From contig JAHFLT010000005.1 in NCBI GenBank assembly GCA_023264635.1, positions 4,582 through 68,581 of the forward strand: a DNA stretch of 64,000 nucleotides, read 5' to 3'. Positions 1,145 to 32,174 of the stretch are shown one piece after another. Below the pieces are notes generated by a model that was given only the letters and a program-made list of their open reading frames with translations, ran no database searches and was not told where the DNA came from. Both the position numbers and the translations under genes were made by a program. The DNA comes from Candidatus Woesearchaeota archaeon. Lineage in GTDB: Archaea; Nanobdellota; Nanobdellia; Woesearchaeales; JAGVYF01. Positions within the stretch are counted from its first letter, which is position 1, and every line of letters starts with the position of its first letter.

Positions 1145-1462
1145 ATGTTCAATATAGGTACAGACATTGTCTTTATTCCCAAGATAAAAAAGATTCTCAC
1201 AGATAGTTCATTCCTCAACAGAGTCTTTCATGAAGATGAACGCACACCGTTTACAGCTGAGCACCTTGCTGGCATTTACGCTGCAAAGGAAGCTTTTTTT
1301 AAAGCGCTTGGAAAGGATCCATCTTGGCTGTCTGTCCACATCAAAGGCAAAGCACCACAATGTGTTCTCACACCGCAGCTTGCGCAAAAAATAAAGCACA
1401 CAAGCCTCAGCATAAGCCATGATAAAGAATATGCTATTGCGCAGGTGCTCGTAGAGCTATGA
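1145..1462 (+). CDS. acpS: Holo-[acyl-carrier-protein] synthase (4'-phosphopantetheinyl transferase, AcpS type)
   Basis: IGTDIVFI near the N-terminus, AAKEAFFKALG, and a C-terminal ISISHDKEYAIAQV match the AcpS signature. Size is about 105 aa. Its stop overlaps the start of the next gene (ATGA). Confidence 0.75.
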   Translation: MFNIGTDIVFIPKIKKILTDSSFLNRVFHEDERTPFTAEHLAGIYAAKEAFFKALGKDPSWLSVHIKGKAPQCVLTPQLAQKIKHTSLSISHDKEYAIAQVLVEL

Positions 1463-3831
1463 ACACTATCTTAGAGTTGATTGATAGCCTGAAGGAGAAA
1501 GAAGGGATAGCATTAACTTCTTTCAATGGATATCGACATTTTCATTACACCTACCAAGAACTCTACGACCTTGCCAGTAGGACAGCAGCTTTACTTGATC
1601 ATATAGGTATCAACAAAAAAGATGTTGTACTCATCTGGGGACCTAACCAGCCGGAGTGGGTAGCTGCTTTTTTAGCATGCATCATCCGAGGTGCGATTGC
1701 TGTACCGATAGATGTGCATAACAAACCAGATTTTGTTGAGAAAGTGCAAAAGCAGACAAAAGCGAAGCTGCTCATTACCAATACACCGCTATCCCAAATC
1801 AAGTCACTGTCCTTGAATAATCTCTTTTATGCATTACAATTTCCACCATCCCAACCAAGAGAATGCTTTGAAAAAGATATTGTTGAAATACTATACACAT
1901 CTGGCACAACAGGAGAACCAAAGGGAGTTGCGTTGTCACACAAGAATTTCTGCGCAAGCCTTTTGGCATTGCAGATGCTCATCAAGCCAGAGAAGCACAC
2001 AGTTCTCTCTGTGCTACCATTGAGCCACATTTTCGAACAAGTTATTGGCCTTCTGTTGCCATTACAATTTGGAGCAAGAATTATTTATTTACCTTCTCTT
2101 AAACCATCCCTTTTGCTTGACAGTATCAGGAAAGAACGTGTAACCATTCTGTTATTGATGCCGCGTATGATGGAACTTTTGCTGGTAGAGTTGCAGTGTT
2201 CTCCACTCTATTCTTTTTATTCATTGACAAAAACAGGGAAGCTGTTGTTAGCGCCTTCACTGCACTTCATTGTGGTGGGCGGCGCTCCACTGGACAATGA
2301 ACTTGAGCGTGCATGGGAAAAACTTGGTTTCGAGGTTCTGCAAGGATATGGCATGACAGAAACAACCGCCTTACTAACCTGTTTATTGCCAGAAGTTCAT
2401 GTGCATAACTCTGTTGGCAAAGCAGTGCCAGGTGTTGAACTTAAAGTGGAGAACGATGAGATTGTAGTGCGGGGGGATAATGTCTTTACTGCATACTACC
2501 GGAACAAGCAAAAAACAAGCGCTGCATTTTCTAAGGGATGGTTTAAGACCGGTGACATGGGAGAATGTGACTCTGCAGGATTCATATACATCAAAGGACG
2601 AAAAAAAGATATGATAAAAACAAGCTCGGGCTTCACTATTTATCCTGAAGATATAGAAGCTGTGCTGAAAAAATGCAGTGGCGTAAGAGATGCATGTGTA
2701 ATTGGCATTCCAACACGCAAAGGAGAAAAAGTTCATGCAGTCCTCTTACTTGAAAATGGAAATCCTGAAGAGGTTATCGCAGAAGCAAACAAACAGCTTG
2801 ATGAGATACAAAAAATTACAGATTATTCACTTTGGCCAGATCGAGATTTTCCCCGAACTCCTCTGCAGAAGGTGAAGAAAAATGTCGTTCTTGGTATTGT
2901 TCTTGGTATAACACCAAAAAGAATTGCAAAGACTCAGAGGGAAAGACTTCCCCCGCTCAAAGCAACGATTGCCCAACTGACAACGAAAAATATCTTGCCA
3001 AATGCACAGTTGAGAGACCTTGATTTTTCCTCGTTGGATAGAGTTGAACTTGCAACACGGTTAGAGCAGGAGTTTCTTACTGATGTTGATGAGAACGAAC
3101 TGCGCCCAGAGACAACAGTAGCTGATGTTGAGAAATTAATTCTCAAAGGAATACGAGAGAGAGAGGTGCATGTACGCCGCTGGACGCGCTGGAGTATTAT
3201 ACGTCTCATCCGTGTTGTCATCCAGCACTTTTTGTATATTGTAACAGCACTCTTGTGTAGGCGTGTTGTGAAGGGAAGAGAAAATGTCTCTGGAATACGG
3301 GGTCCTGTGATTTTTATTGCAAATCATGCAAGCCATCTTGATACGCCTGTCCTTCTTATGAGCTTGCCATTTTCATTGCGTGAAAAAATTACACCAGCTG
3401 CATGGGAAGAATATTTTTTTGAGGAACGGAAAGAGTGGTACTGGAAAGTGTATCAGTTATTTGCCTATAATTTTACAACTATATTCTGGAATGCCTTCAT
3501 GTTCCCGCAGACAAAAGGTTTCCGTAAGGCATTGCGTTATGCAGGAGAATTAGTGGATGATGGATGGAGCATTCTTGTTTTCCCTGAAGGTGCACGCACG
3601 ACAACCGGCAAGTTGTTGCCATTCAAGGAAGGGATTGGATTTTTGGCAAAAGAGCTGAAGATACCAATTGTGCCGATAAAGCTTGAAGGATTATTGCCTA
3701 TTTTACCCAGAGGAAAAATTATCCCTTCACCAGGAAAAGTGATGGTGAAAATAGGAAAGCCATTATCATTCACCACCGAATCTGTTGTTGAGATAACTAA
3801 GTATATCGAAGATGCTCTAAAGAGGTTGTGA
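1459..3831 (+). CDS. Fusion protein: AMP-dependent acyl-ACP/CoA synthetase, internal phosphopantetheine carrier domain, and PlsC-type 1-acyl-glycerol-3-phosphate acyltransferase (Aas-like, with a different domain order)
   Basis: AMP-binding motifs YTSGTTGEPKG, GWFKTGDMG and YIKGRKKDMIKTSSGFTIYPEDIE. Carrier motif LDFSSLDRVEL. Acyltransferase motifs HX4D (FIANHASHLD) and FPEGARTT. Confidence 0.8.
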   Translation: MNTILELIDSLKEKEGIALTSFNGYRHFHYTYQELYDLASRTAALLDHIGINKKDVVLIWGPNQPEWVAAFLACIIRGAIAVPIDVHNKPDFVEKVQKQTKAKLLITNTPLSQIKSLSLNNLFYALQFPPSQPRECFEKDIVEILYTSGTTGEPKGVALSHKNFCASLLALQMLIKPEKHTVLSVLPLSHIFEQVIGLLLPLQFGARIIYLPSLKPSLLLDSIRKERVTILLLMPRMMELLLVELQCSPLYSFYSLTKTGKLLLAPSLHFIVVGGAPLDNELERAWEKLGFEVLQGYGMTETTALLTCLLPEVHVHNSVGKAVPGVELKVENDEIVVRGDNVFTAYYRNKQKTSAAFSKGWFKTGDMGECDSAGFIYIKGRKKDMIKTSSGFTIYPEDIEAVLKKCSGVRDACVIGIPTRKGEKVHAVLLLENGNPEEVIAEANKQLDEIQKITDYSLWPDRDFPRTPLQKVKKNVVLGIVLGITPKRIAKTQRERLPPLKATIAQLTTKNILPNAQLRDLDFSSLDRVELATRLEQEFLTDVDENELRPETTVADVEKLILKGIREREVHVRRWTRWSIIRLIRVVIQHFLYIVTALLCRRVVKGRENVSGIRGPVIFIANHASHLDTPVLLMSLPFSLREKITPAAWEEYFFEERKEWYWKVYQLFAYNFTTIFWNAFMFPQTKGFRKALRYAGELVDDGWSILVFPEGARTTTGKLLPFKEGIGFLAKELKIPIVPIKLEGLLPILPRGKIIPSPGKVMVKIGKPLSFTTESVVEITKYIEDALKRL

Positions 3832-5176: not shown

Positions 5177-6232
5177 TTAGTCTTTCCACGTCCTCATCGC
5201 TTCTCCCAAACGTCGTAATCCTTCACGGAGAATATCCTCTTTTACACTATAGCCAATCCGAAGAAACCCCTCCGCTTCAAAGAAAGCACCAGGAATCACG
5301 CGTGTCTGATACGTATCAATAAGATAGTCAACAAATGCGCGTGTATCACTGACAGGTACTTTAACGAACCCTATAGGAGTTCCATTTGGTTCAACCCATT
5401 GGACATTATAGTGTGTTACCCATTCTTTCATGAGGGAAAAGTTTTTTCGCAGCCTCGCAAGCGTCAGCCCTCTCCACATATCTTCATTACGTAATACCTC
5501 TTGTGTTTTTTTGTCAATAACCGAAGAGACGTCTGCATGGAGAAGCGTATTTGCTTCCTCTATTTTAGAGATAAGCGACTCTTCTCCCACAACCCACCCA
5601 ACTTTGAGCTTGCCAAGTCCATATGGTTTATTCACGTGCGACAGAGAAAGGGCATATTTTGTCATGTGACAGAGGGGAGATGACTTCACAAATGAGGCCT
5701 CATTATAGACCTCATCAGAAAGAATAATGCTCTTGTTTTGCTCAGCATACGCAGCAAGTTCTTCAAGATTCTTTTGCGATAGTGATGTCCCAGAAGGATT
5801 ATGTGGGTTGGTGAGGATGACCATTGCCGGAGCTGGTTTTTGATATGAAGGAAGAGGTAACGCAAAGCTCTGCTCAAAAAGGCGTTGTAACGGTTGAATG
5901 GCACAGCCCATGCTTCTCGCTCCCAGTACAAGTGGCTCGTACACCGGTGTTTCAACAGCGACACTATCTTTTGGAGAAAGAAAAGTCTGCACAATAAGCT
6001 GGACAAGGAGAGAAACGCCTGTGGTGACGAATATATTTTTCTTTTCTACATTATACTTTGCTGCAAGAAGTGATCGTAACTCAGGACTTCCACTCATAAA
6101 CGGAACAGAGAGCTTTGTCTGAGGAACAATAACCTCATACTCTTCAGGACACATCCCACTTGAATACAAATCATACTTTATGAAACGCTTTTCTCTTTCC
6201 AGCCAGAGCAAATATGAAGAAGGAATAATCAT
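5177..6232 (-). CDS. PLP-dependent aminotransferase, class I/II
   Basis: ILTNPHNPSGT motif (NPxNPTG) and LSHVNKPYGLGKLKVGW with the PLP-lysine region. Stop/start overlap with the downstream gdh (ATGA at 6229-6232). Confidence 0.7.
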   Translation of the reverse strand: MIIPSSYLLWLEREKRFIKYDLYSSGMCPEEYEVIVPQTKLSVPFMSGSPELRSLLAAKYNVEKKNIFVTTGVSLLVQLIVQTFLSPKDSVAVETPVYEPLVLGARSMGCAIQPLQRLFEQSFALPLPSYQKPAPAMVILTNPHNPSGTSLSQKNLEELAAYAEQNKSIILSDEVYNEASFVKSSPLCHMTKYALSLSHVNKPYGLGKLKVGWVVGEESLISKIEEANTLLHADVSSVIDKKTQEVLRNEDMWRGLTLARLRKNFSLMKEWVTHYNVQWVEPNGTPIGFVKVPVSDTRAFVDYLIDTYQTRVIPGAFFEAEGFLRIGYSVKEDILREGLRRLGEAMRTWKD

Positions 6233-7491
6233 GGAAAATGCCCGCGCATCTTGACGTAATTCGCTACCTTTCCGATAGCAAGGACATAAGCCCCTGTTCG
6301 GAGATCAGTATTGTACTGCTTAGCCGCATTCTTCACGCGCACAAAAGCACGATCCATGTACTTGCTAAGTTCATCATACACGCGCTGTTCCTCCCACTGT
6401 AGTTCCTGCTTATCTTGTGCCCACTCAAAGTAGCTGACAGTGACGCCACCAGCATTCGCGAGGATGTCAGGCACAACAATAGTGCCATTTGCAGCCAGTA
6501 TTTTTTCCGCATCCACTGTTGTAGGAGCGTTAGCGCCTTCTACCACCATCTTTGCTTTAATACGGGGGGCATTCTCTGGAGTCAGCTGGTTCTCTAAAGC
6601 TGCCGGAACCAATATGTCAACTGGCAACTCGAGAATATCTTTAACACCACTATGTTCTGCATTGGGATACCCTTGCAGCGTTTTTGTTTTCAATGAATAT
6701 GCAATGACATCATCTATGCCCAACCCCCTTTTGTTATGGATTGTCCCGTTGATATCAGATACCGCAACTACTTTGCATCCGCGCAACTCCAATTGTTTTG
6801 CAGAGACACTTCCCACATTACCAAATCCCTGCACAGCTACTTTCATCCCTTTTAGGTCTCCACGATAAAATTCCCGCCATGCACGTTCTGCGATTTGCAC
6901 AACCCCTCTACCTGTTGCCTCTGCTCTTCCCTGACTACCATATAATTCTACGGGTTTCCCTGTCACAACGCTTGATACAGTGTTTCCATTATTCTCTATA
7001 ATGCTATATGTGTCCATTATCCAGGCCATCACTTCAGCATTTGTCCCCATGTCTGGTGCAGGAACATCCCTGTCTGGATGGAAGACATTGCGCATTTCAT
7101 AGGTATATCTGCGTGTCATTCTCTCTAGCTCTCCTTTGGAAAGTGTCCTCGGATCGCATGTAATGCCACCTTTTGCTCCGCTAAAAGGCAAGTCAACAAC
7201 TGCACATTTCCATGTCATGAGAAATGCCAATGCCTTTATTTCATCTAAATCCACAGAAGGCGCATATCGTATCCCACCTTTTGTTGGTGTCATGAACTTG
7301 TGCCGCACTCTATAGCCAGTAAACATCTTTATCTCACCATTATCTGTCATCACTGGGAAATTCACTTCCAGTTCAAAATTAGTCTTTCGTAACCGTGGAA
7401 GGATATTTTTATCGATATCCATCAGTGCAGCTGCCTGGTCAAATTGTTTTTGTGCATTCTTGTACGGATTGATTTTCTCTTCCATCATCAT
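6229..7491 (-). CDS. gdhA: Glutamate dehydrogenase
   Basis: KGGIRYAPSVDLDEIKALAFLMTWKCAVVDLPFSGAKGGI and the GFGNVG NAD(P) Rossmann motif. Likely start is MMMEEKINPY at about 7491. The ORF track extends to 7623, which would overlap the divergent ZIP gene. Confidence 0.85.
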   Translation of the reverse strand: MMMEEKINPYKNAQKQFDQAAALMDIDKNILPRLRKTNFELEVNFPVMTDNGEIKMFTGYRVRHKFMTPTKGGIRYAPSVDLDEIKALAFLMTWKCAVVDLPFSGAKGGITCDPRTLSKGELERMTRRYTYEMRNVFHPDRDVPAPDMGTNAEVMAWIMDTYSIIENNGNTVSSVVTGKPVELYGSQGRAEATGRGVVQIAERAWREFYRGDLKGMKVAVQGFGNVGSVSAKQLELRGCKVVAVSDINGTIHNKRGLGIDDVIAYSLKTKTLQGYPNAEHSGVKDILELPVDILVPAALENQLTPENAPRIKAKMVVEGANAPTTVDAEKILAANGTIVVPDILANAGGVTVSYFEWAQDKQELQWEEQRVYDELSKYMDRAFVRVKNAAKQYNTDLRTGAYVLAIGKVANYVKMRGHFP

Positions 7492-7595
7492 CCCCCCGGC
7501 AATAACCCGTCTAATCCATTTTGCAATTATTTCGTCTTCAAACGTCATAATACAAGCGCGAAATGTAATCGTCGTAATGCTGGTATTTAAATTAG

Positions 7596-8348
7596 TTGCG
7601 CACAAAGCTTTTAAAGAAAACAAAACTATGCATTACCATGTTACTCTATATCCTTTTCAGTATAGCTATTGTTAGTCTTATTTCCCTTGTGGGGGTATTT
7701 TTTTTTTCTGGTTTCCTTGAGAGACATTTATTCCTTCTTGTCGGTTTTGCTACTGGTGCGTTGCTTGGTACAACATTTTTCGATATACTGCCTGAAACAA
7801 ATGAAACAAGCATTGTTTTAGTTGGTATATTAGTTTCTTTCCTCCTGGAAAAATTGTTTTGGCATCATCACCATCATTATGAAGAACACCATAAACACGT
7901 TCATCCTGCTGCTTATCTCAATCTCGTAGGAGATGGCATCCACAACTTTATTGACGGAACAATAATCACATCTGCTTATCTTACAAGTATACCACTTGGA
8001 GTAACAGTAACATTGGCCATCATCCTTCATGAAATTCCACAGGAGATAGGTGATTTCGGCATTCTTTTGGCAAGTGGTTTCACGAAAGAGAAAGCATTGT
8101 TCTATAACTTTCTTTCAGCGCTCACTGCATTTGCAGGTGGGTTACTCGTCTACTTCTTTTCATTTAGTATGAAAACACTTGCGCCTACATTACTCGCATT
8201 TGCTGCCGGTGGATTTTTATATATTACAAATGTAGATATGATGCCGGAGTTACATAAAGAAAAAGACACGAAAAAATCAATACAGCAAGTTATTTTTATT
8301 TTGTTAGGAATTGGAGTTATTTGGATTGGTGCTCAACACGGAAGGTGA
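7596..8348 (+). CDS. zupT: ZIP-family zinc/iron permease (ZupT-like)
   Basis: HNFIDG and LAIILHEIPQEIGDFGIL motifs, a His-rich loop HHHHHYEEHHKH, and multiple TM helices. An alternative start lies at M7638. Confidence 0.75.
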   Translation: MRTKLLKKTKLCITMLLYILFSIAIVSLISLVGVFFFSGFLERHLFLLVGFATGALLGTTFFDILPETNETSIVLVGILVSFLLEKLFWHHHHHYEEHHKHVHPAAYLNLVGDGIHNFIDGTIITSAYLTSIPLGVTVTLAIILHEIPQEIGDFGILLASGFTKEKALFYNFLSALTAFAGGLLVYFFSFSMKTLAPTLLAFAAGGFLYITNVDMMPELHKEKDTKKSIQQVIFILLGIGVIWIGAQHGR

Positions 8349-8821: not shown

Positions 8822-9556
8822 TTATTTTCTTTGTAATATCCCAAGAGACGCTCTAAAGAAGAAACATGCGTCGATACCATATCCACAGCCGTAACGATTA
8901 CCGCGACTAACAGGCATCAAAACATTTTCCGGTGGAAGATAAAGCCATGTATTCTGCCTAATTTCCTCGGGTAATATCGCATACGGACGAGACCAGAGCT
9001 TCTGGACTAGGAAGGGGTTTATTTCGTTCACACCTTTGGGGGTACTCCAATCAAGTAATGAGCCAATGGAATACACTTCCTCTCCCGCGTGTTTCAGTTT
9101 TCCTCCTTGCACTACATATTGATATCCATTCCACACTAGATTCTCCGGGTCGAGATAGCAGTGCAACATATTCTCTTCCTGCATTATCGCCATGCTTAGC
9201 CATTCTCCGTAACCATTGAGCATATTATCAGCAATTGCTTGCTGGTCTGGTTGTAGTGTCCCTTCCAGTCCTCTGCAGATAAGGTCAAATGCTTCTACTG
9301 GTCTGGGATGGCGCTCGTAGCCGCGTGCTCGCAATGCACGCAGACTGGCGTCATAGGTGTACAGTCTTTTCTCTTTTCCATCATAAACCGCTTTCTCTTC
9401 GAAAACAACATCAGATAGTGCTGACTTTATGGTAATCTCCTTTTTCTCATCGGGTTTGCCGATATCGAGATATGATTCAATGCCCATAAAGAGGGAGAGA
9501 TTGAGTGACATTAAAAAACTTACCTGCTGAGTAAGTTGAGTAAAAGCTGAGAACAT
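8822..9556 (-). CDS. Unknown-function paralog family, copy 1 (of 3)
   Basis: Shares GKPDEKKEITIKSALSDVVFE, YERHPRP.EAFDLICRGLEG, YGEWLSMA, LHCYLDPENL, VVQGGK.KHA and KLWSRPYAILPE with 19030..19695 and 19692..20369. Likely true start is MGIESYLDIGKPDEKK. About 170 nt are near-identical to copy 2. Confidence 0.5.
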   Translation of the reverse strand: MFSAFTQLTQQVSFLMSLNLSLFMGIESYLDIGKPDEKKEITIKSALSDVVFEEKAVYDGKEKRLYTYDASLRALRARGYERHPRPVEAFDLICRGLEGTLQPDQQAIADNMLNGYGEWLSMAIMQEENMLHCYLDPENLVWNGYQYVVQGGKLKHAGEEVYSIGSLLDWSTPKGVNEINPFLVQKLWSRPYAILPEEIRQNTWLYLPPENVLMPVSRGNRYGCGYGIDACFFFRASLGILQRK

Positions 9557-9581
9557 ATCTTTATATAGTTTTTATCTCTTC

Positions 9582-10973
9582 TTGGGACTTGTGGGGGAAG
9601 TGACAATACAAGACAAACTCCTGGGAGATAATGGTGTCTACGACCTAGTGAACCAAAACTTCTACTTGAATCGTGCACAAATCCAGCTAGGAGACAGATT
9701 CTTCGAGCCAGTAGCGTTTATCGGCATTCTCACTGCTCTTGTCGACGGCAAAGAATTACTGTATGGTCCGTATGGCAAAGGGAAGACAACTTCTTCAGAA
9801 GCGTTGGGAGCACTCCTCTATGGACTCCCCTTGGAATTCATGCAGGTAAGCCAACTTGATGGTCATCCAGAGCAGACAGAAGAGAAAATAAAGGCTATCA
9901 TTGATTTAGGCAAGCTCACTAAAGAAGGGATTGAGGAGGTCATCTGGCGGTTGTTCGTGTATACTCCTGCAAAAGTATGTGATGAAATTAATCGTCTTCC
10001 CGAAGGCAAGCAGAACATCTTGCTCAAAGGAATTGATAGAAATGTATGGACGTACCGAGATAGTACATTGACAGTGCCGCAAGGATGCTTTTACGGAACA
10101 TGCAATTATGCTGACAGGGGAAATACAGATCTCATCCCACCGTTGAAAGACAGATTTGACATCGCTGTAGAAGTGAGACGAGCAGACCCTATTCGCCGCG
10201 AACTCATTAGAAATGGCGTTGTGCGAGATGCATTCGAACAGCTGAAGGAGCCAGCACTGTATACGGAAATTTTCGCTATGCTGATGGACTCCAAACACAC
10301 AGCTGAAAAAAAACTGGAGTTGCTAGAACAGATGAGTCAAAAATTCAAGCAAGAACTCAGCAAGCGCTTCAGTTTGTCCCTTCCCACGAATGATGAACTA
10401 CGCACTGCTAAAAAAGAGTTATCTTCTCTTATCTTGGAGGATGAGGCGACCCTATTCATAGATTACCTTACCAGCGAGATGGAATTCTGTATCTACCATG
10501 ACAAGCCAGAGCATGCCACCTGCCAGAAATGCCATTGGAAAGATTTTCTTTGTTCAAGAATGGGGAAAATAGGAGGCAGACTTGAGCTTTCGGTGGTTAA
10601 GTATGCCCGTGCAACAGCGTGGTTATTAGGGGAAAAAAAAGTAACATTGGAACACGTCAAGATGATATACCCTTATGCGCTATGGCACCGTGCAGAGTTT
10701 CAGGATAATATTTTACAGGAGTATGTCAGCGAGCCGAGAGAAAGCACCTTAAAGCTCCACATCGCACGAAAGATCGTGGAAGAGAAGACACCCCATTTTA
10801 TCGAGACAAAGGACCTGCAGGCACGGAGCTATAATGCTGTTGTCAATAGCAACGCAAACGACCTTGAGAAGTCTCACTTTAAGCATGCTGTGTACGTGGA
10901 TTACGTCAGTGCATGGGACTCCAAAAAAGACAAGGACGCTGTTGAGCAACTGCTGAAAAAAATAAGGAAATGA
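9582..10973 (+). CDS. MoxR-like AAA+ ATPase (AAA_3/AAA_5 type) with a Cys-containing C-terminal extension
   Basis: Walker A LLYGPYGKGKTT. Walker B and sensor region VCDEINRLPEGKQNILLKGIDRN. NP-loop/arginine region TVPQGCFYGTCNYADRGNTDLIPPLKDRFDIAVEV. Non-ATG start (TTG or GTG around 9582-9600). TATA-like ctttatatag about 25-30 nt upstream. Confidence 0.65.
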   Translation: MGLVGEVTIQDKLLGDNGVYDLVNQNFYLNRAQIQLGDRFFEPVAFIGILTALVDGKELLYGPYGKGKTTSSEALGALLYGLPLEFMQVSQLDGHPEQTEEKIKAIIDLGKLTKEGIEEVIWRLFVYTPAKVCDEINRLPEGKQNILLKGIDRNVWTYRDSTLTVPQGCFYGTCNYADRGNTDLIPPLKDRFDIAVEVRRADPIRRELIRNGVVRDAFEQLKEPALYTEIFAMLMDSKHTAEKKLELLEQMSQKFKQELSKRFSLSLPTNDELRTAKKELSSLILEDEATLFIDYLTSEMEFCIYHDKPEHATCQKCHWKDFLCSRMGKIGGRLELSVVKYARATAWLLGEKKVTLEHVKMIYPYALWHRAEFQDNILQEYVSEPRESTLKLHIARKIVEEKTPHFIETKDLQARSYNAVVNSNANDLEKSHFKHAVYVDYVSAWDSKKDKDAVEQLLKKIRK

Positions 10974-11650
10974 CGCTTGACAAACTGATAAAAAAATATG
11001 GTTTGTGGTCAAAAGAAGTTGTAGCATCAAAAGAAAAGTATGTAATAAATGAACAGGCACCTACACCCTATCACCGCTTGCTGGAGCATATCCTTTATTT
11101 TACACCCGAACAACCATTCCCCGGGGTATTCAAGCACTCTTACGATTTATTAGTAAAGGAAGGACTCGAGCCATCACAAGATGATATCGAAGCATTCGCA
11201 AAGAGTTTCCTCGTTTATGAAGGATATGACCGTTTCTGGCGCCGTGCAGGGAAATTTCTCTCAGCCATGATCGCATTATGGGAAAATAACACACACACAA
11301 AAACGTTTATTCGGCTCGATTTCTCTGCTGCAAGTAAACCTGTAGACTATGCATGCATAAAACTAAATAACTGTTCTATTCAGATAGATGGGTCTGTGGG
11401 CTCTTACTGCGGCATGAACAGCAAGGAATGCAATATCCTTATCCAAAGCAATGCTGGTCAATCTCTTGGTTACAAAGCAGAGAAAACTCTTTTCAAAGTA
11501 TCTGGAGAGACGGGAACCGGACTTGGAGCGTATGCACATGCATGCTCATATTTTGTCCGTGGCACAATAGCGCAGATTTCACCGTATATTCTATCCAGTT
11601 GCGAGGTTTACAATAGTGGTGGCAGCGCGCACACAAAGGTGTTCCCATGA
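10970..11650 (+). CDS. Small protein with an N-terminal helical region and a C-terminal GXGXG-type beta-helix repeat; paralog 1 of 3
   Basis: N-terminus MTLDKLIKKYG. C-terminal IQIDGSVGSYCGMNSKECNILIQSNAGQSLGYKAEKTLFKVSGETGTGLGAYAHACSYFVRG fits the GXGXG beta-helix pattern of the glutamate synthase C-terminal domain and FwdC. Start overlaps the upstream stop. Confidence 0.5.
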   Translation: MTLDKLIKKYGLWSKEVVASKEKYVINEQAPTPYHRLLEHILYFTPEQPFPGVFKHSYDLLVKEGLEPSQDDIEAFAKSFLVYEGYDRFWRRAGKFLSAMIALWENNTHTKTFIRLDFSAASKPVDYACIKLNNCSIQIDGSVGSYCGMNSKECNILIQSNAGQSLGYKAEKTLFKVSGETGTGLGAYAHACSYFVRGTIAQISPYILSSCEVYNSGGSAHTKVFP

Positions 11651-12219
11651 CCATAGACAAACTCCTCAAACAAAAAAAGGTCCCAGACAAAAAGGTAAGT
11701 GAACAGAAAAAGACAAATTATCAGGAATCACTTCAGCCATTGAGCCTTCATGACCTCTATAAAGATATGCTCCTTGGGTATGAATATGGCTTACGATGGG
11801 ACCCGAAAAAGCTGGACATCATCACCGTGACAAGGGATGATTTGACAGTAATCATAGACGAACTGTCATGCCACCAATCCTCTATCGGATTCGAGTTCTT
11901 CACAGGCAGCTTTATTTCAGATGTGATGATGCACTTGCTTATGAAGGGAGAACTTGAGAAATACATCACTATTACTCTTCCAAAGGCAGTTCACAGGATG
12001 GGCGCTGGAATCCATACCATAACCCTCGAAATTAAAGGAGACTGTGGCTACAATTGCGCGCAGAACGCGAAAAATGCGATGTTTATCGTCCACGGAGATG
12101 TGACAACCATTGGAAGAAATGAGAACTGTACATTTTACATTTATGGTGACGTCAAAAGTCATAAATATTATAATAGCAATGTGTATCTGTACAGAAACAA
12201 TGGATGGACTCACCTATGA
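11647..12219 (+). CDS. GXGXG-like beta-helix small protein, paralog 2
   Basis: N-terminus MTIDKLLKQKK. C-terminus ITLEIKGDCGYNCAQNAKNAMFIVHGDVTTIGRNENCTFYIYGDV. Overlapping start/stop with its neighbours. Confidence 0.5.
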   Translation: MTIDKLLKQKKVPDKKVSEQKKTNYQESLQPLSLHDLYKDMLLGYEYGLRWDPKKLDIITVTRDDLTVIIDELSCHQSSIGFEFFTGSFISDVMMHLLMKGELEKYITITLPKAVHRMGAGIHTITLEIKGDCGYNCAQNAKNAMFIVHGDVTTIGRNENCTFYIYGDVKSHKYYNSNVYLYRNNGWTHL

Positions 12220-12803
12220 CGCTTGAAAAACTTTTGAAGAAACACGGAATAAAGGTGATTGAAGTAAAGGATAAGGCAAAGCATATTGTTGCTTATCCCT
12301 CCATCGTAGAGATATACACTCTTTTAATAAAAGACGCTGCACAATTCTTCGACGGAAAAAAAAAGGTGCAATATGCTGATATATGTGAATTGCTCACAAG
12401 GAGAGGATGCACAAAAAATGAGTTTGAAAAACTATGCGCTTCACTGGATCAATACAAGAATATGCGTAATTTTCCTCGATGCACAGGTATCGCATTAAGC
12501 ACAATAGTAACAGTACTTCCAGCAAAGATGACTATTGATGTTTCTTCTTTATCTGTTCCGCCAGATTATCTCTGCACACGCCTCGCTGACAAGGAGTATA
12601 CCCTTATTGGGGAGGTAGGTAGATGTTTTGGGTTCCAGACAGAGCGCAGTATTTTCCATCTTGATGGGAGATATGGAGATTCTCTGGGCAAAGAAACTAG
12701 TGACTGCACGTTTTATATCAAAGACCCATATACTCCGCATAATATCCCCCCGTCCAATAGTGTTTACTACTTAAAGAATGGCAAGTGGCGGCGCGGGAGA
12801 TAA
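12204..12803 (+). CDS. GXGXG-like beta-helix small protein, paralog 3
   Basis: N-terminus MDSPMTLEKLLKKHG. C-terminus LIGEVGRCFGFQTERSIFHLDGRYGDSLGKETSDCTFYIKD. Confidence 0.45.
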   Translation: MDSPMTLEKLLKKHGIKVIEVKDKAKHIVAYPSIVEIYTLLIKDAAQFFDGKKKVQYADICELLTRRGCTKNEFEKLCASLDQYKNMRNFPRCTGIALSTIVTVLPAKMTIDVSSLSVPPDYLCTRLADKEYTLIGEVGRCFGFQTERSIFHLDGRYGDSLGKETSDCTFYIKDPYTPHNIPPSNSVYYLKNGKWRRGR

Positions 12804-19029: not shown

Positions 19030-19695
19030 TTATGCTTGGGGCATTACCCCGCGAGAGACCTTGCAGTACCCTGTGCCGACATCATACCATTTATAGTAAC
19101 CACCGCGACTCATAAGCCACAAAACACTCTCTGGTGGAATCCACATCAATGCATTCTGCCTAATCTTTTCGGGTAGTATCGCATACGGGCGAGACCAGAG
19201 TTTCTCGACCAAAGTGGGGTTTATTTCGTTCATGGTTTTGGGGGTAAAGCAATCAGGAAATGAGCTAATTGAATACACTTCCTCTCTCGCGTGTTTTATT
19301 TTTCCTCCTTGTACAACATACCTCCACTCTTTCTTATCCCATAGGAGATTCTCCGGATCGAGATAACAATGCAACAAATTTCCTTTCCGCAACATTGCCA
19401 TGCTTAGCCATTCGCCATAACTATTCATCATATCATCAGCGATTGCTTGCTGTTCTGGAGATAATCTTCCTTCCAGTCCTCTGCAGATAAGGTCAAATGC
19501 TTCTGCTGGACGGGGGTGGCGCTCATAGCCGCGTTCTCTTAGTGCTTGTAAGCTGTCATTGAAAGTGTAGAGTTTTTTGTGTTGTCCTTCGTACACAGTT
19601 CTCGGTTCGAAAACAACATCTGATAGTGCTGACTTTAGGGTAATCTCTTTTTTCTCATCGGGTTTATTGAGGCCGAGATAGAAATCAATGCTCAT
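19030..19695 (-). CDS. Unknown-function paralog family, copy 3
   Basis: Shares the same conserved blocks as 8822..9556. About 80% nucleotide identity in the core, with a divergent C-terminal tail. Confidence 0.5.
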   Translation of the reverse strand: MSIDFYLGLNKPDEKKEITLKSALSDVVFEPRTVYEGQHKKLYTFNDSLQALRERGYERHPRPAEAFDLICRGLEGRLSPEQQAIADDMMNSYGEWLSMAMLRKGNLLHCYLDPENLLWDKKEWRYVVQGGKIKHAREEVYSISSFPDCFTPKTMNEINPTLVEKLWSRPYAILPEKIRQNALMWIPPESVLWLMSRGGYYKWYDVGTGYCKVSRGVMPQA

Positions 19696-20369
19696 CGTTG
19701 TCGTACCCCACGAGATGCACTGGTGATGTAGCTGGTGTCAACATCATACTTGGTGATGTAGTTATTGCTACTGACAGGACGCAAAGCATTTTCTGGTGGA
19801 AGCAAAATCCACGCATTCTGTCTTATCTCTTCAGGTAATAGTGCATAGTGACGAGACCAGAGCTTCTCCACTAAGGCTGGATTCGCATCGTTCATATATT
19901 TAATGTGAATCAACCCATGCAATGAGCCAATAGAGTACACTTCCTCTTCCGCGTGTTTCAGTTTTCCTCCTTGAACAATGTATTGATTTCCATTCCACAC
20001 CAGATTCTCCGGGTCAAGATAGCAATGCAACAGATTTCCTTTCCGCAGAATTGCCATGCTCAGCCATTCGCCATAACTATTCACCATATCGCCAGCAACT
20101 GCTTGCTGCTCTGGTTGCAGTCTCTCCTCCAGTCCTCTGCAGATAAAATCAAACGCTTCTACTGGTCTGGGATGGCGCTCGTAGCCGCGTGCTCGCAATG
20201 CACGCAGACTGGCGTCATAGGTGTACAGTCTTTTCTCTTTTCCATCATAAACCGCTTTCTCTTCGAAAACAACATCTGATAGTGCTGACTTTATGGTAAT
20301 CTCCTTTTTCTCATCTGGTTTGCCTAGTCCCTCGTACAGTTTTATCATGTTAATAGAGAATCCCAACAA
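19692..20369 (-). CDS. Unknown-function paralog family, copy 2 (tandem with copy 3)
   Basis: Same blocks. The 170 nt at 20151-20320 match 9291-9460 with 2 mismatches. Confidence 0.5.
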   Translation of the reverse strand: MLGFSINMIKLYEGLGKPDEKKEITIKSALSDVVFEEKAVYDGKEKRLYTYDASLRALRARGYERHPRPVEAFDFICRGLEERLQPEQQAVAGDMVNSYGEWLSMAILRKGNLLHCYLDPENLVWNGNQYIVQGGKLKHAEEEVYSIGSLHGLIHIKYMNDANPALVEKLWSRHYALLPEEIRQNAWILLPPENALRPVSSNNYITKYDVDTSYITSASRGVRQR

Positions 20370-31897: not shown

Positions 31898-31949
31898 TTT
31901 TAAAGGTATGGCGAAATCTTTATAAACACGGCACTATGTTCAGGTACTT

Positions 31950-32060
31950 GGACGGTCATAGGGGCTTGGTTCACCCGATCCCATTCCGAACTCGGACGTT
32001 AAGCAAGCCTCCGTACCGGTAAGTACTTTACTCAGTAGGGGAAAGCTGGTAAGCTGTCCA
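31950..32060 (+). rRNA. rrf: 5S ribosomal RNA
   Basis: CACCCGATCCCATTCCGAACTCGGACGTTAAGC matches the universal 5S loop B/helix III/loop C core. Terminal helix I is ggacgg...ctgtcc. TATA-like tttataaa about 25 nt upstream. No 16S/23S adjacent. Confidence 0.75.
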
Positions 32061-32174
32061 CTCACATTCTCCCTTTACTACATTCTCCCGTAAGCATATT
32101 CTTCACTCAGCTATTCTTCCACAACTTACACAAAGATTAAATAATGCTGTGCACTGCCCGAGTAACACTTACCT

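Follow-up and report, generated by a model that had tools for sequence, protein, structure and literature searches.

A probable reduced variant of an uncharacterised ATPase-VWA-GXGXG module, with three beta-helix paralogs, in a Woesearchaeota archaeon

Introduction

Few AAA+ machines are as poorly understood as the ATPases of the MoxR/chelatase type. Whenever a case was solved (Rubisco activase CbbQO, NorQD, RavA-ViaA and Mg-chelatase), a specific job in maturation came to light. In the MoxR-vWA ternary conflict systems, the ATPase and the vWA protein are joined by a third component, which is VMAP, an inactive STAND NTPase, FtsH or a beta-propeller (Kaur, Burroughs, Iyer and Aravind, eLife 2020; PMC7159879). 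We analysed a stretch of 64,000 nucleotides from a Candidatus Woesearchaeota archaeon (assembly GCA_023264635.1, contig JAHFLT010000005.1, positions 4,582 to 68,581 of the forward strand), the whole of which is called the window below. It carries a + strand block of four genes, which encode an AAA+ ATPase and then three diverged paralogs of 226, 190 and 195 aa (small proteins A, B and C). The analysis gave good support for the view that this block represents a conserved but uncharacterised ternary module in a reduced form specific to its lineage: the VWA adaptor is absent nearby, and the beta-helix partner is present in three copies.

Results

The block and the family to which its ATPase belongs

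An earlier note on this DNA, made from the letters alone, had described four + strand open reading frames (ORFs) with overlapping stops and starts. Direct reading of the sequence bore this out, with ATGA at all three junctions. The genes are as follows.

9582..10973, + strand: AAA+ ATPase of the MoxR/Mg-chelatase/MCM clade, 463 aa from TTG 9582, or 460 aa from GTG 9591 (public gene calls)
10970..11650, + strand: small protein A, 226 aa
11647..12219, + strand: small protein B, 190 aa
12216..12803, + strand: small protein C, 195 aa, or 199 aa with start 12204

The longest ORF for C runs from 12204; ATG 12216 was chosen, which gives the ATGA overlap and the N-terminus common to the three proteins.

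Homologs of the window ATPase number in the hundreds, with about 440 aa and 33-43% identity. Retrieval by a signature motif, HPEQTEEK, found the family in at least 356 species genomes and at least 539 metagenome contigs. The carriers belong to Thermodesulfovibrionia, Desulfobacterota, Archaeoglobi, Methanocellales and others, which are largely anaerobic lineages, and cultured carriers include Archaeoglobus and Thermodesulfovibrio. No metagenome relative was above 43% identity among the matches listed.

To these relatives the databases give names such as 'AAA family ATPase', 'MoxR-like ATPase', 'Mg-chelatase subunit ChlI' and 'hypothetical protein'.

Profiles built for three components (the ATPase, a VWA protein and a GXGXG protein, hereafter GX) were used to scan 160 fetched loci. 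Counts were taken from the 112 loci with at least 3 kb downstream, which were not de-replicated. A VWA gene lay directly downstream of the ATPase in 100 of the 112 loci, and a GX protein was encoded, or fused to the ATPase, in 98. The commonest arrangement was VWA with one GX (85 loci). The others were VWA with two GX (7), VWA with a fused GX (4), VWA only (4), GX only (2) and neither (10). The cassettes with two GX paralogs came from several archaea. Most loci of Nitrospirota and Archaeoglobi had the gene order ATPase-VWA-GX; those of Desulfobacterota and Methanocellales had ATPase-GX-VWA.

The VWA partners were about 470-590 aa long. The VWA_2 model matched 27 of 28, and the metal ion-dependent adhesion site (MIDAS) residues D-x-S-x-S...T...D were invariant. 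A search of PDB sequences with the VWA family profile gave no informative match. The GX partners in other cassettes reached the PF01493 gathering score (33-65 bits, cut-off 32.5). In-frame ATPase-GX fusions of about 660-673 aa were found at six loci (L058, L128, L130, L138, L144 and L145) and also as protein P0112. At least one of the six, L058, is from Desulfobacteraceae. The six fusion sequences were alike, and thus probably go back to a single fusion event.

Neighbourhood clustering of about 80 loci detected no conserved neighbour beyond these three components. The sole recurrent extra neighbour occurred at 12 loci and includes the gene at the PAC2-family position of the Thermodesulfovibrio locus; it is PAC2 by position only, and the recurrence probably reflects related genomes rather than a functional link. 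Taken together, the counts support well a self-contained module, or triad, of a MoxR/chelatase-clade ATPase with a Cys/His site, a VWA protein of about 500 aa with MIDAS, and one or two small GXGXG proteins.

Several loci showed further features of the partners. The N-terminal half of the VWA protein has a conserved His-rich motif, HHALNHWAKHPYD, DHELSHHCFCPFD or DHGVAHYTRCPWD (L002:8292-9710, L055:8007-9767, L056:7982-9553). In some members it reads HExxH, a hint of a degenerate domain of the zincin type; the motif has no match among Pfam models. At L057:1996-7571, from a metagenome-assembled genome of Candidatus Aenigmatarchaeota, the ATPase and VWA genes stand with genes for four small proteins that the GX profile does not detect (171, 143, 254 and 305 aa). 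All four start with NPF(G/D)MYDG, the same type of tag as the NPFEEF of bacterial GX proteins. In five Archaeoglobaceae loci (L037, L038, L042, L044 and L050) the gene after the ATPase encodes a conserved protein of about 175-195 aa whose N-terminus resembles a signal peptide with a lipobox (...L.GC...), and neither GX nor VWA follows. A relative of this protein, about 165 aa, lies between ATPase and VWA at L017, L019 and L027. The Archaeoglobaceae proteins of about 180 aa were considered as homologs of B and C, and were rejected as unrelated lipoproteins.

The window variant

The window ATPase has both the HPEQTEEK motif and the Cys/His cluster of the family, and GX-type proteins are encoded downstream of it. 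The operon contains no VWA gene, and the VWA profile detected nothing in the six-frame translation of the whole 64-kb window (best E 0.75). The earlier note had proposed that the ATPase pairs with beta-helix proteins instead of VWA. This holds locally only, as seen from the 100 of 112 family loci with VWA. Since the family norm is ATPase, VWA and GXGXG together, we interpreted the window block as a derived VWA-less variant, not as a new pairing principle.

Only one close relative was found (L001). Its ATPase is 84% identical, and its cassette contains the ATPase, A and C, without B, in the same context of genes for glutamate dehydrogenase (GDH), ZIP and S-adenosylmethionine (AdoMet) decarboxylase. 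No VWA gene was present on its 7-kb contig. A word-index search for homologs of small protein A returned A itself and the L001 ortholog only. Small protein C is 65% identical to its L001 ortholog.

Nonsynonymous and synonymous differences per site (pN/pS) against L001 were 0.10/0.79 for the ATPase, 0.29/0.71 for A and 0.21/0.84 for C; pN and pS are given in place of dN/dS, with synonymous sites saturated for the ATPase and C. The small proteins evolve 2-3 times faster than the ATPase in this comparison. With pN far below pS, the ATPase, A and C are under purifying selection, and the cassette is not decaying.

Two Nitrospirota genomes, one of them assigned to Thermodesulfovibrionales, carry another and independent VWA-less form, with the ATPase and one GX (L020 and L024). 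Among the loci examined, the combination of no VWA and three GX paralogs was seen in the window only.

The ATPase

The motifs quoted in the earlier note, GPYGKGKTT, VCDEINRL, PPLKDRF and HATCQKCHWKDFLC, were all present in the translation; the last is a Cys-rich string at residues 311-324. The features of the protein are as follows.

9765..9791, + strand: Walker A GPYGKGKTT, residues 62-70; G62, G65, G67, K68 and T69 invariant in 33 and in 70 family members
9864..9887, + strand: HPEQTEEK, residues 95-102; signature acidic motif in an insert after helix 2, invariant or nearly so across the family
9972..9995, + strand: Walker B VCDEINRL, residues 131-138; E135, N137 and R138 invariant in both alignments
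10137..10157, + strand: PPLKDRF, arginine-finger region, residues 186-192; D190, R191 and D193 invariant
10488..10553, + strand: Cys/His cluster C-X10-C-X2-C-H-X5-C (C303, C314, C317, H318 and C324)

D134 of Walker B was invariant in one family alignment (A2) and nearly so in the other (A6). Sensor 1 N175, the arginine finger R191 and sensor 2 R333 all fell at columns invariant in both. The protein also retained 77 of the 89 positions that are conserved at 85% or more in 68 relatives, and the 12 changes were mostly conservative. At the level of sequence, these invariants and retained positions suggested a functional ATPase.

In the Pfam scan the protein matched AAA_5 (1.3e-5), AAA_lid_2 (8.4e-7, with the lid at 333-374) and generic AAA, and gave no match to PF07726 (AAA_3). 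PF07726 was recorded for only two (P0043 and P0052) of the 120 relatives listed. Searching PDB sequences with the ATPase family profile found MoxR 2r44 at 3.6e-7, and the BchI/ChlI lid. The AlphaFold model had a predicted local distance difference test (pLDDT) of 92, and its best Foldseek matches were BchI 1g8p (9.6e-10), MoxR 2r44 (3.5e-9), MCM2-7 subunits and RavA. Since BchI, MoxR 2r44, MCM and RavA are the nearest folds, the protein is placed, by sequence and predicted structure, as an AAA+ ATPase of the MoxR/chelatase/MCM clade at about equal distance from MoxR and BchI. Of the proposed MoxR/AAA_3 type, the MoxR/chelatase clade was thus retained, and AAA_3 gave way to AAA_5 with AAA_lid_2.

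The Mg-chelatase subunit I model TIGR02030 scored 21.5 bits (cut-off 467), with an alignment that covers the lid only. A CobS-type model scored 22 bits (cut-off 779), and the lid also matched CobT-type profiles. No BchD or BchH gene was present among the neighbours of the block in the window.

The Cys cluster had been assigned to a C-terminal extension. The AlphaFold model put it elsewhere, in a loop (303-326) between a long helical insert, which follows the ATPase core, and AAA_lid_2. The insert, which precedes sensor 2, repositions the lid as in other members of the clade, and a helical C-terminal domain of about 90 aa comes after the lid. In 70 sequences, C303, C314, C317 and H318 were invariant and C324 was conserved in at least 90%, and the cluster is presumably a Zn or Fe-S site. 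Model confidence was low in this loop, with pLDDT about 60, as would be expected for a metal site modelled without its metal.

The small proteins

BLASTP between the small proteins gave 4e-14 for A-C, 3e-4 for A-B and 9e-4 for B-C. These values are far beyond chance, and the three are paralogs as had been claimed. Their overall identity is 17-27%; they are old paralogs, read from a single mRNA with translational coupling. The common N-terminal motif, MT(L/I)(D/E)KL(L/I)K, was real in all three and nearly identical.

A profile of 60 cassette-linked GXGXG proteins from other genomes (the GX profile) was searched against the six-frame translation of the window. It detected A (1.5e-28), C (8e-9) and B (4e-4), and nothing else. 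Small protein A also matched the GX alignment, from which its close relatives had been left out, with 95% hhalign probability. A central motif, G.F(L/I)S.(L/I), was common to A, B, C and the GX family, with G94 and S98 as the most conserved columns. The C-terminal tail of the family, (I/V)Y..(N/D)G.W, was present in B and C. These proteins are homologs of the GXGXG component of the triad, and very degenerate members of the GXGXG group.

Small protein A opens with a flexible N-terminal helix. Residues from about 32 to 108 make up a helical domain, and residues 113-225 a right-handed beta-helix of degenerate GXGXG type. In the AlphaFold model the N-terminal helix was detached and of low confidence. 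B is the most diverged paralog; it retains the N-terminal MTIDKLLK and a C-terminal tail, VYLYRNNGW, which aligns with the GX proteins of the cassettes. C has a short beta-helix and the tail VYYLKNGKW.

The earlier proposal of a GXGXG beta-helix was correct as to the fold, which is the right-handed beta-helix of FwdC/GltS type. On the other hand, none of the three reached the PF01493 gathering score, and Pfam gave no PF01493 match to A, B or C at E up to 1. Their beta-helices are shorter than those of the relatives and have fewer rungs, and the usual Gly-Gly turn of the rungs is replaced by an Asn/Cys-type turn. The Cys residues, at rung positions where relatives have Gly-Gly, appear to point to a structural role.

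Tandem arrays of related proteins

A HMMER search against 1.84 billion representative proteins gave 496 proteins at E up to 1e-3. The clusters of A, B and C themselves matched at 1e-76 or better and the next match was at 3.6e-25, so the search contained no close relatives of the three. Several of the better matches had the same degenerate rungs, with the Asn/Cys-type turn replacing Gly-Gly.

Some of these relatives were not in cassettes. L166 carries a solo gene of the GX family, and L169 has at least three in a row on one contig. L172:4368-11741 (GCA_053535855.1) encodes nine consecutive, translationally coupled GX paralogs of 199-324 aa, all of which start with a motif like MK.(N/D)(L/I)K..L.DLE. 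No AAA+ or VWA gene was found within 14 kb of this array. About 1.5 kb downstream of it, past two small genes, lies a gene for a protein with a GKRGTGKS Walker A and a DEAHEF Walker B.

The largest array was L173:1-16879 (GCA_053533315.1, contig JAIYNH010000034.1, 196 kb), in which 21 of 23 complete genes encode GX paralogs of 190-320 aa. They are 28-48% identical, and most overlap the next gene by about 12 nt. Their ends are conserved (N-terminal MAEIsDYL..L.EQ.VQEE.KI.VV.NP, C-terminal tail CKAKIY.KG...WPK) and their middles are more variable. The array is interrupted by an AbiEii-family gene and the upstream neighbour of that gene, and it runs past both ends of the 16.9-kb stretch, so there are at least 21 paralogs. 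The stretch contains no ATPase or VWA gene. The window triplet is a small, ATPase-linked instance of this family prone to tandem expansion.

In the window, the GX genes have a glutamate dehydrogenase gene about 2 kb away (6229-7623, - strand), and the same was seen at L001 and at the unrelated solo-GX locus L166 (2774-4045). This proximity may be residual synteny among related archaea, or coincidence.

The divergent gene and the rest of the window

Upstream of the block is a divergent gene for a 244-aa protein (8822-9556, - strand). The spacer, claimed in the earlier note to be about 25-40 bp, was indeed short, with 25 bp to the TTG start of the ATPase and 34 bp to the GTG start. It contains one candidate promoter element.

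9560..9567, + strand: TTTATATA, archaeal TATA-box-like element in the 25-bp divergent intergenic spacer, from direct reading of the sequence

The element lies about 25 nt 5' of GTG 9591 and is a plausible archaeal TATA box for the ATPase operon; its spacing would fit a leaderless or near-leaderless mRNA. It is nearly palindromic and could act in both directions.

Two paralogs of the 244-aa protein are encoded further along the window (19030-19695 and 19692-20369, both - strand; 1e-96 and 1e-107), and the members of this family are about 220-244 aa long. The first copy, of 244 aa, had no match in Pfam, NCBIfam, PADLOC or PHROGs. The family is absent beside the L001 cassette and from all other related loci. 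For lack of a counterpart there, we found no support for a functional link of this gene with the block, or for the co-regulation that had been suggested.

Elsewhere, the window encodes an archaeal-type LonB (833 bits, TIGR00764), which marks the DNA as archaeal. An isolated 5S rRNA gene lies at 31948-32062 (+ strand, 70 bits), with no 16S or 23S rRNA gene nearby and no tRNA gene in the 64 kb. A 790-aa protein with AMP-binding, PP-binding and acyltransferase domains is encoded at 1459-3831 (+ strand), with an ACPS phosphopantetheinyl transferase gene just upstream (public calls). For an archaeon, such a lipid or acyl-activating fusion of domains is unusual.

Discussion

A remodelling reading of the block

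Our preferred reading of the whole is that the block is a reduced triad variant, and that its ATPase is an ATP-driven remodeller which takes hold of beta-helix clients by their N-terminal helix. As a whole we hold it tentatively, at slightly less than an even chance. The ATPase would form a hexameric ring, like MoxR, BchI and RavA. With ATP it would remodel, assemble or release its dedicated clients or adaptors, the beta-helix proteins, and would recognise them by a short amphipathic helix at their extreme N-terminus (MTLDKLLKK in the window). In the full module, the MIDAS of the VWA protein may hold the client peptide, or a third protein or further target, by analogy with other MoxR-VWA pairs (PMC7159879). 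In the window, either A, B and C might be bound by the ATPase itself, or VWA might act in trans from a gene elsewhere. The tight translational coupling suggests that the three paralogs act together, possibly as a hetero-oligomer.

The N-terminal helix is proposed as the docking tag because it is the only strongly conserved segment of A, B and C, and because every clade has a motif at the extreme N-terminus. These motifs are clade-specific, and are always in that position (NPFEEF, IKRLLEKNP, IKRLLEKNPDLL, ILKKFKDF, RIIDRL). The proposal also draws on the NPF(G/D)MYDG tag of the four Aenigmarchaeota partners that escape the GX profile, and on the detached state of the helix in the model. The natural ATPase-GX fusions point to these two proteins as the core interacting pair.

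Several points weigh against this remodelling scheme. We infer the contacts between the proteins from synteny and fusions only. The VWA-less status covers the 64-kb window, and a VWA protein may act in trans. Small protein B has no ortholog, and the selection figures cover the ATPase, A and C. Conservation of the N-terminus could partly reflect a nucleotide constraint on the ATGA reinitiation site. Finally, solo and arrayed relatives (L166, L172 and L173) stand without a nearby ATPase. This indicated that the function of the beta-helix does not depend strictly on an adjacent ATPase.

A broader version is unlikely, but follows the same lines. In it, the GX proteins are a diversifying family of clients or sensors served by a dedicated MoxR/chelatase-like engine. 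The N-terminal tag would dock many paralogs and some unrelated tagged proteins, with or without VWA, and the arrays of 3, 9 and more than 21 would be a repertoire. If this were true, anaerobic archaea and bacteria would possess an unrecognised ATP-dependent assembly or conflict system.

A compact module with constant partners, VWA and a FwdC/GltS-type beta-helix, is now defined in at least 356 species genomes, where it has so far had only generic annotation. Its link to the very large tandem arrays of some archaea offers the first functional handle on an expanded gene family that lacks annotation. In the window, the ATPase-beta-helix pair has been kept under purifying selection without an adjacent VWA gene, and its four small proteins make the physiological role testable.

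Other explanations

A machine for insertion of a metal centre or cofactor, of the chelatase, NorQD or CoxDE type, is improbable as an explanation, although much in the ATPase would suit it. BchI is its top structural match, its lid matches BchI/ChlI and CobT-type profiles, and it has the invariant Cys/His cluster. The VWA partner has a full MIDAS and the His-rich N-terminal motif, which is HExxH in some, and the loci retrieved are largely those of anaerobes, such as Archaeoglobi, Methanocellales, Thermodesulfovibrionia and Desulfobacterota. The beta-helix would be a scaffold or substrate-holding subunit, the counterpart of BchH/CobN; GXGXG domains have a scaffold role in GltS, as they do in the Fwd and Fhc metalloenzyme complexes. 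On the other hand, no target enzyme is conserved beside the module in about 80 loci, and the BchI- and CobS-type scores are far under their cut-offs. The GX proteins lack a conserved set of metal ligands, with rung Cys that seem structural, and arrays of 9-21 paralogs are hard to square with a single cofactor pathway.

We also give a low probability to a biological-conflict module (defence or immunity) of the MoxR-vWA ternary type, in which the ATPase would act as a regulated engine and the beta-helix paralogs as diversified sensors, decoys or immunity-like proteins. The layout does parallel that of MoxR-vWA systems with a third component (PMC7159879), and the distribution in bacteria and archaea is patchy, with variable neighbours. 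The third component is replaceable, as seen from the Archaeoglobaceae lipoprotein and the other proteins in Aenigmarchaeota. The GX arrays consist of diverged paralogs (28-48%) with conserved termini and variable middles, one of them interrupted by AbiEii. Against this, PADLOC-DB 2.0 gave no family at E up to 1 for five proteins scanned, which include the four of the block, and PHROGs yielded a weak generic AAA match only. No relative was detected with the ATPase profile in 2.9 million viral contigs. The block is neither a listed defence system nor of phage origin. The triad has no recognisable effector domain (nuclease, protease, TIR or pore), and the flanks in the window are housekeeping genes (GDH, ZIP, AdoMet decarboxylase and methylthioribose-1-phosphate (MTR-1-P) isomerase).

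It is very unlikely that the cassette is a decaying remnant, non-functional after loss of VWA, with its small ORFs drifting. This would account for the degenerate GXGXG rungs, beneath Pfam detection, for the shortened beta-helices, for the lack of B in the nearest relative and for the faster evolution of the small proteins. However, every ORF is intact and the ATGA coupling is kept. The ATPase retains all catalytic and cluster residues, and for the ATPase, A and C, pN remains far below pS across a divergence in which synonymous sites are saturated. The degenerate Asn/Cys rung style is common to many intact relatives, and is therefore a mark of the subfamily rather than of decay.

It is barely credible that A, B and C serve as FwdC or as domain 3 of glutamate synthase, in the form of stand-alone subunits whose place beside the ATPase is incidental: the best named match is indeed FwdC (TIGR03122, 6.4e-8), JGI labels some GX relatives, probably wrongly, 'formylmethanofuran dehydrogenase subunit C', and a glutamate dehydrogenase gene is about 2 kb upstream, but the scores are far under the cut-offs (32.2 bits against 130.65 for TIGR03122, 15.9 against 340 for NF042910), the genes called up to about 10 kb away on either side include none for FwdA/B/D or a GltB domain, the proteins group with the cassette-linked ones by a family-specific N-terminal domain and C-terminal tail that FwdC lacks, and the ATPase linkage recurs in about 100 loci, fusions included. 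In line with the earlier note, the block is thus not a formylmethanofuran dehydrogenase or glutamate synthase operon.

Comparison with known systems

The window proteins differ from the PF01493 GXGXG proteins (FwdC/FhcC and the C-terminal domain of the glutamate synthase large subunit) in that they score under every curated threshold and have fewer rungs, the Asn/Cys-type turn, an N-terminal helical domain of their own and the C-terminal (I/V)Y..(N/D)G.W tail. Fwd or GltS partners are absent from the window. With the CARP-domain beta-helices (CAP C-terminal domain, TBCC and RP2), which are eukaryotic, the likeness is in the fold only, at 9-14% identity and with no sequence-profile link.

With the class I chelatases (BchI/ChlI-BchD-BchH and CobS-CobT-CobN), the triad has in common the BchI fold, the lid and the logic of an AAA+ subunit, a VWA subunit and a third subunit. 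Unlike theirs, the VWA protein of the triad lacks an AAA-like N-terminal half. As its third subunit the triad has a beta-helix protein of about 240 aa, whereas theirs is porphyrin-binding and 120-140 kDa. There are no tetrapyrrole genes near the block, and the scores stay far under the family cut-offs.

The MoxR-VWA pairs (RavA-ViaA, CbbQ-CbbO, NorQ-NorD and CoxD-CoxE; 2r44) belong to the same AAA+ clade, and the family described here has, elsewhere, a VWA/MIDAS partner as they do. It differs from them in its constant third partner, GXGXG. The window ATPase differs further in the extra helical insert, the Cys/His cluster and the C-terminal domain, in giving no PF07726 match and in having no VWA gene nearby.

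The earlier note had called the arrangement of MoxR with GXGXG undescribed, and this agreed with our full-text literature search, in which no paper linked MoxR with GXGXG or FwdC, or GXGXG with von Willebrand. A broader search on GXGXG, archaea and AAA returned nothing relevant. The text of PMC7159879 contains no occurrence of beta-helix, GltB or FwdC, and GXGXG is likewise unmentioned.

The triad differs from the systems of PMC7159879 in that its third component is GXGXG and that it has no effector domains, and the window differs also in the missing vWA. The likeness lies in the combination of a MoxR-like ATPase, vWA and a variable third component, in the self-contained cluster and in the patchy distribution. 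The triad, on which we found no paper, is an uncharacterised member of the MoxR-VWA ternary theme.

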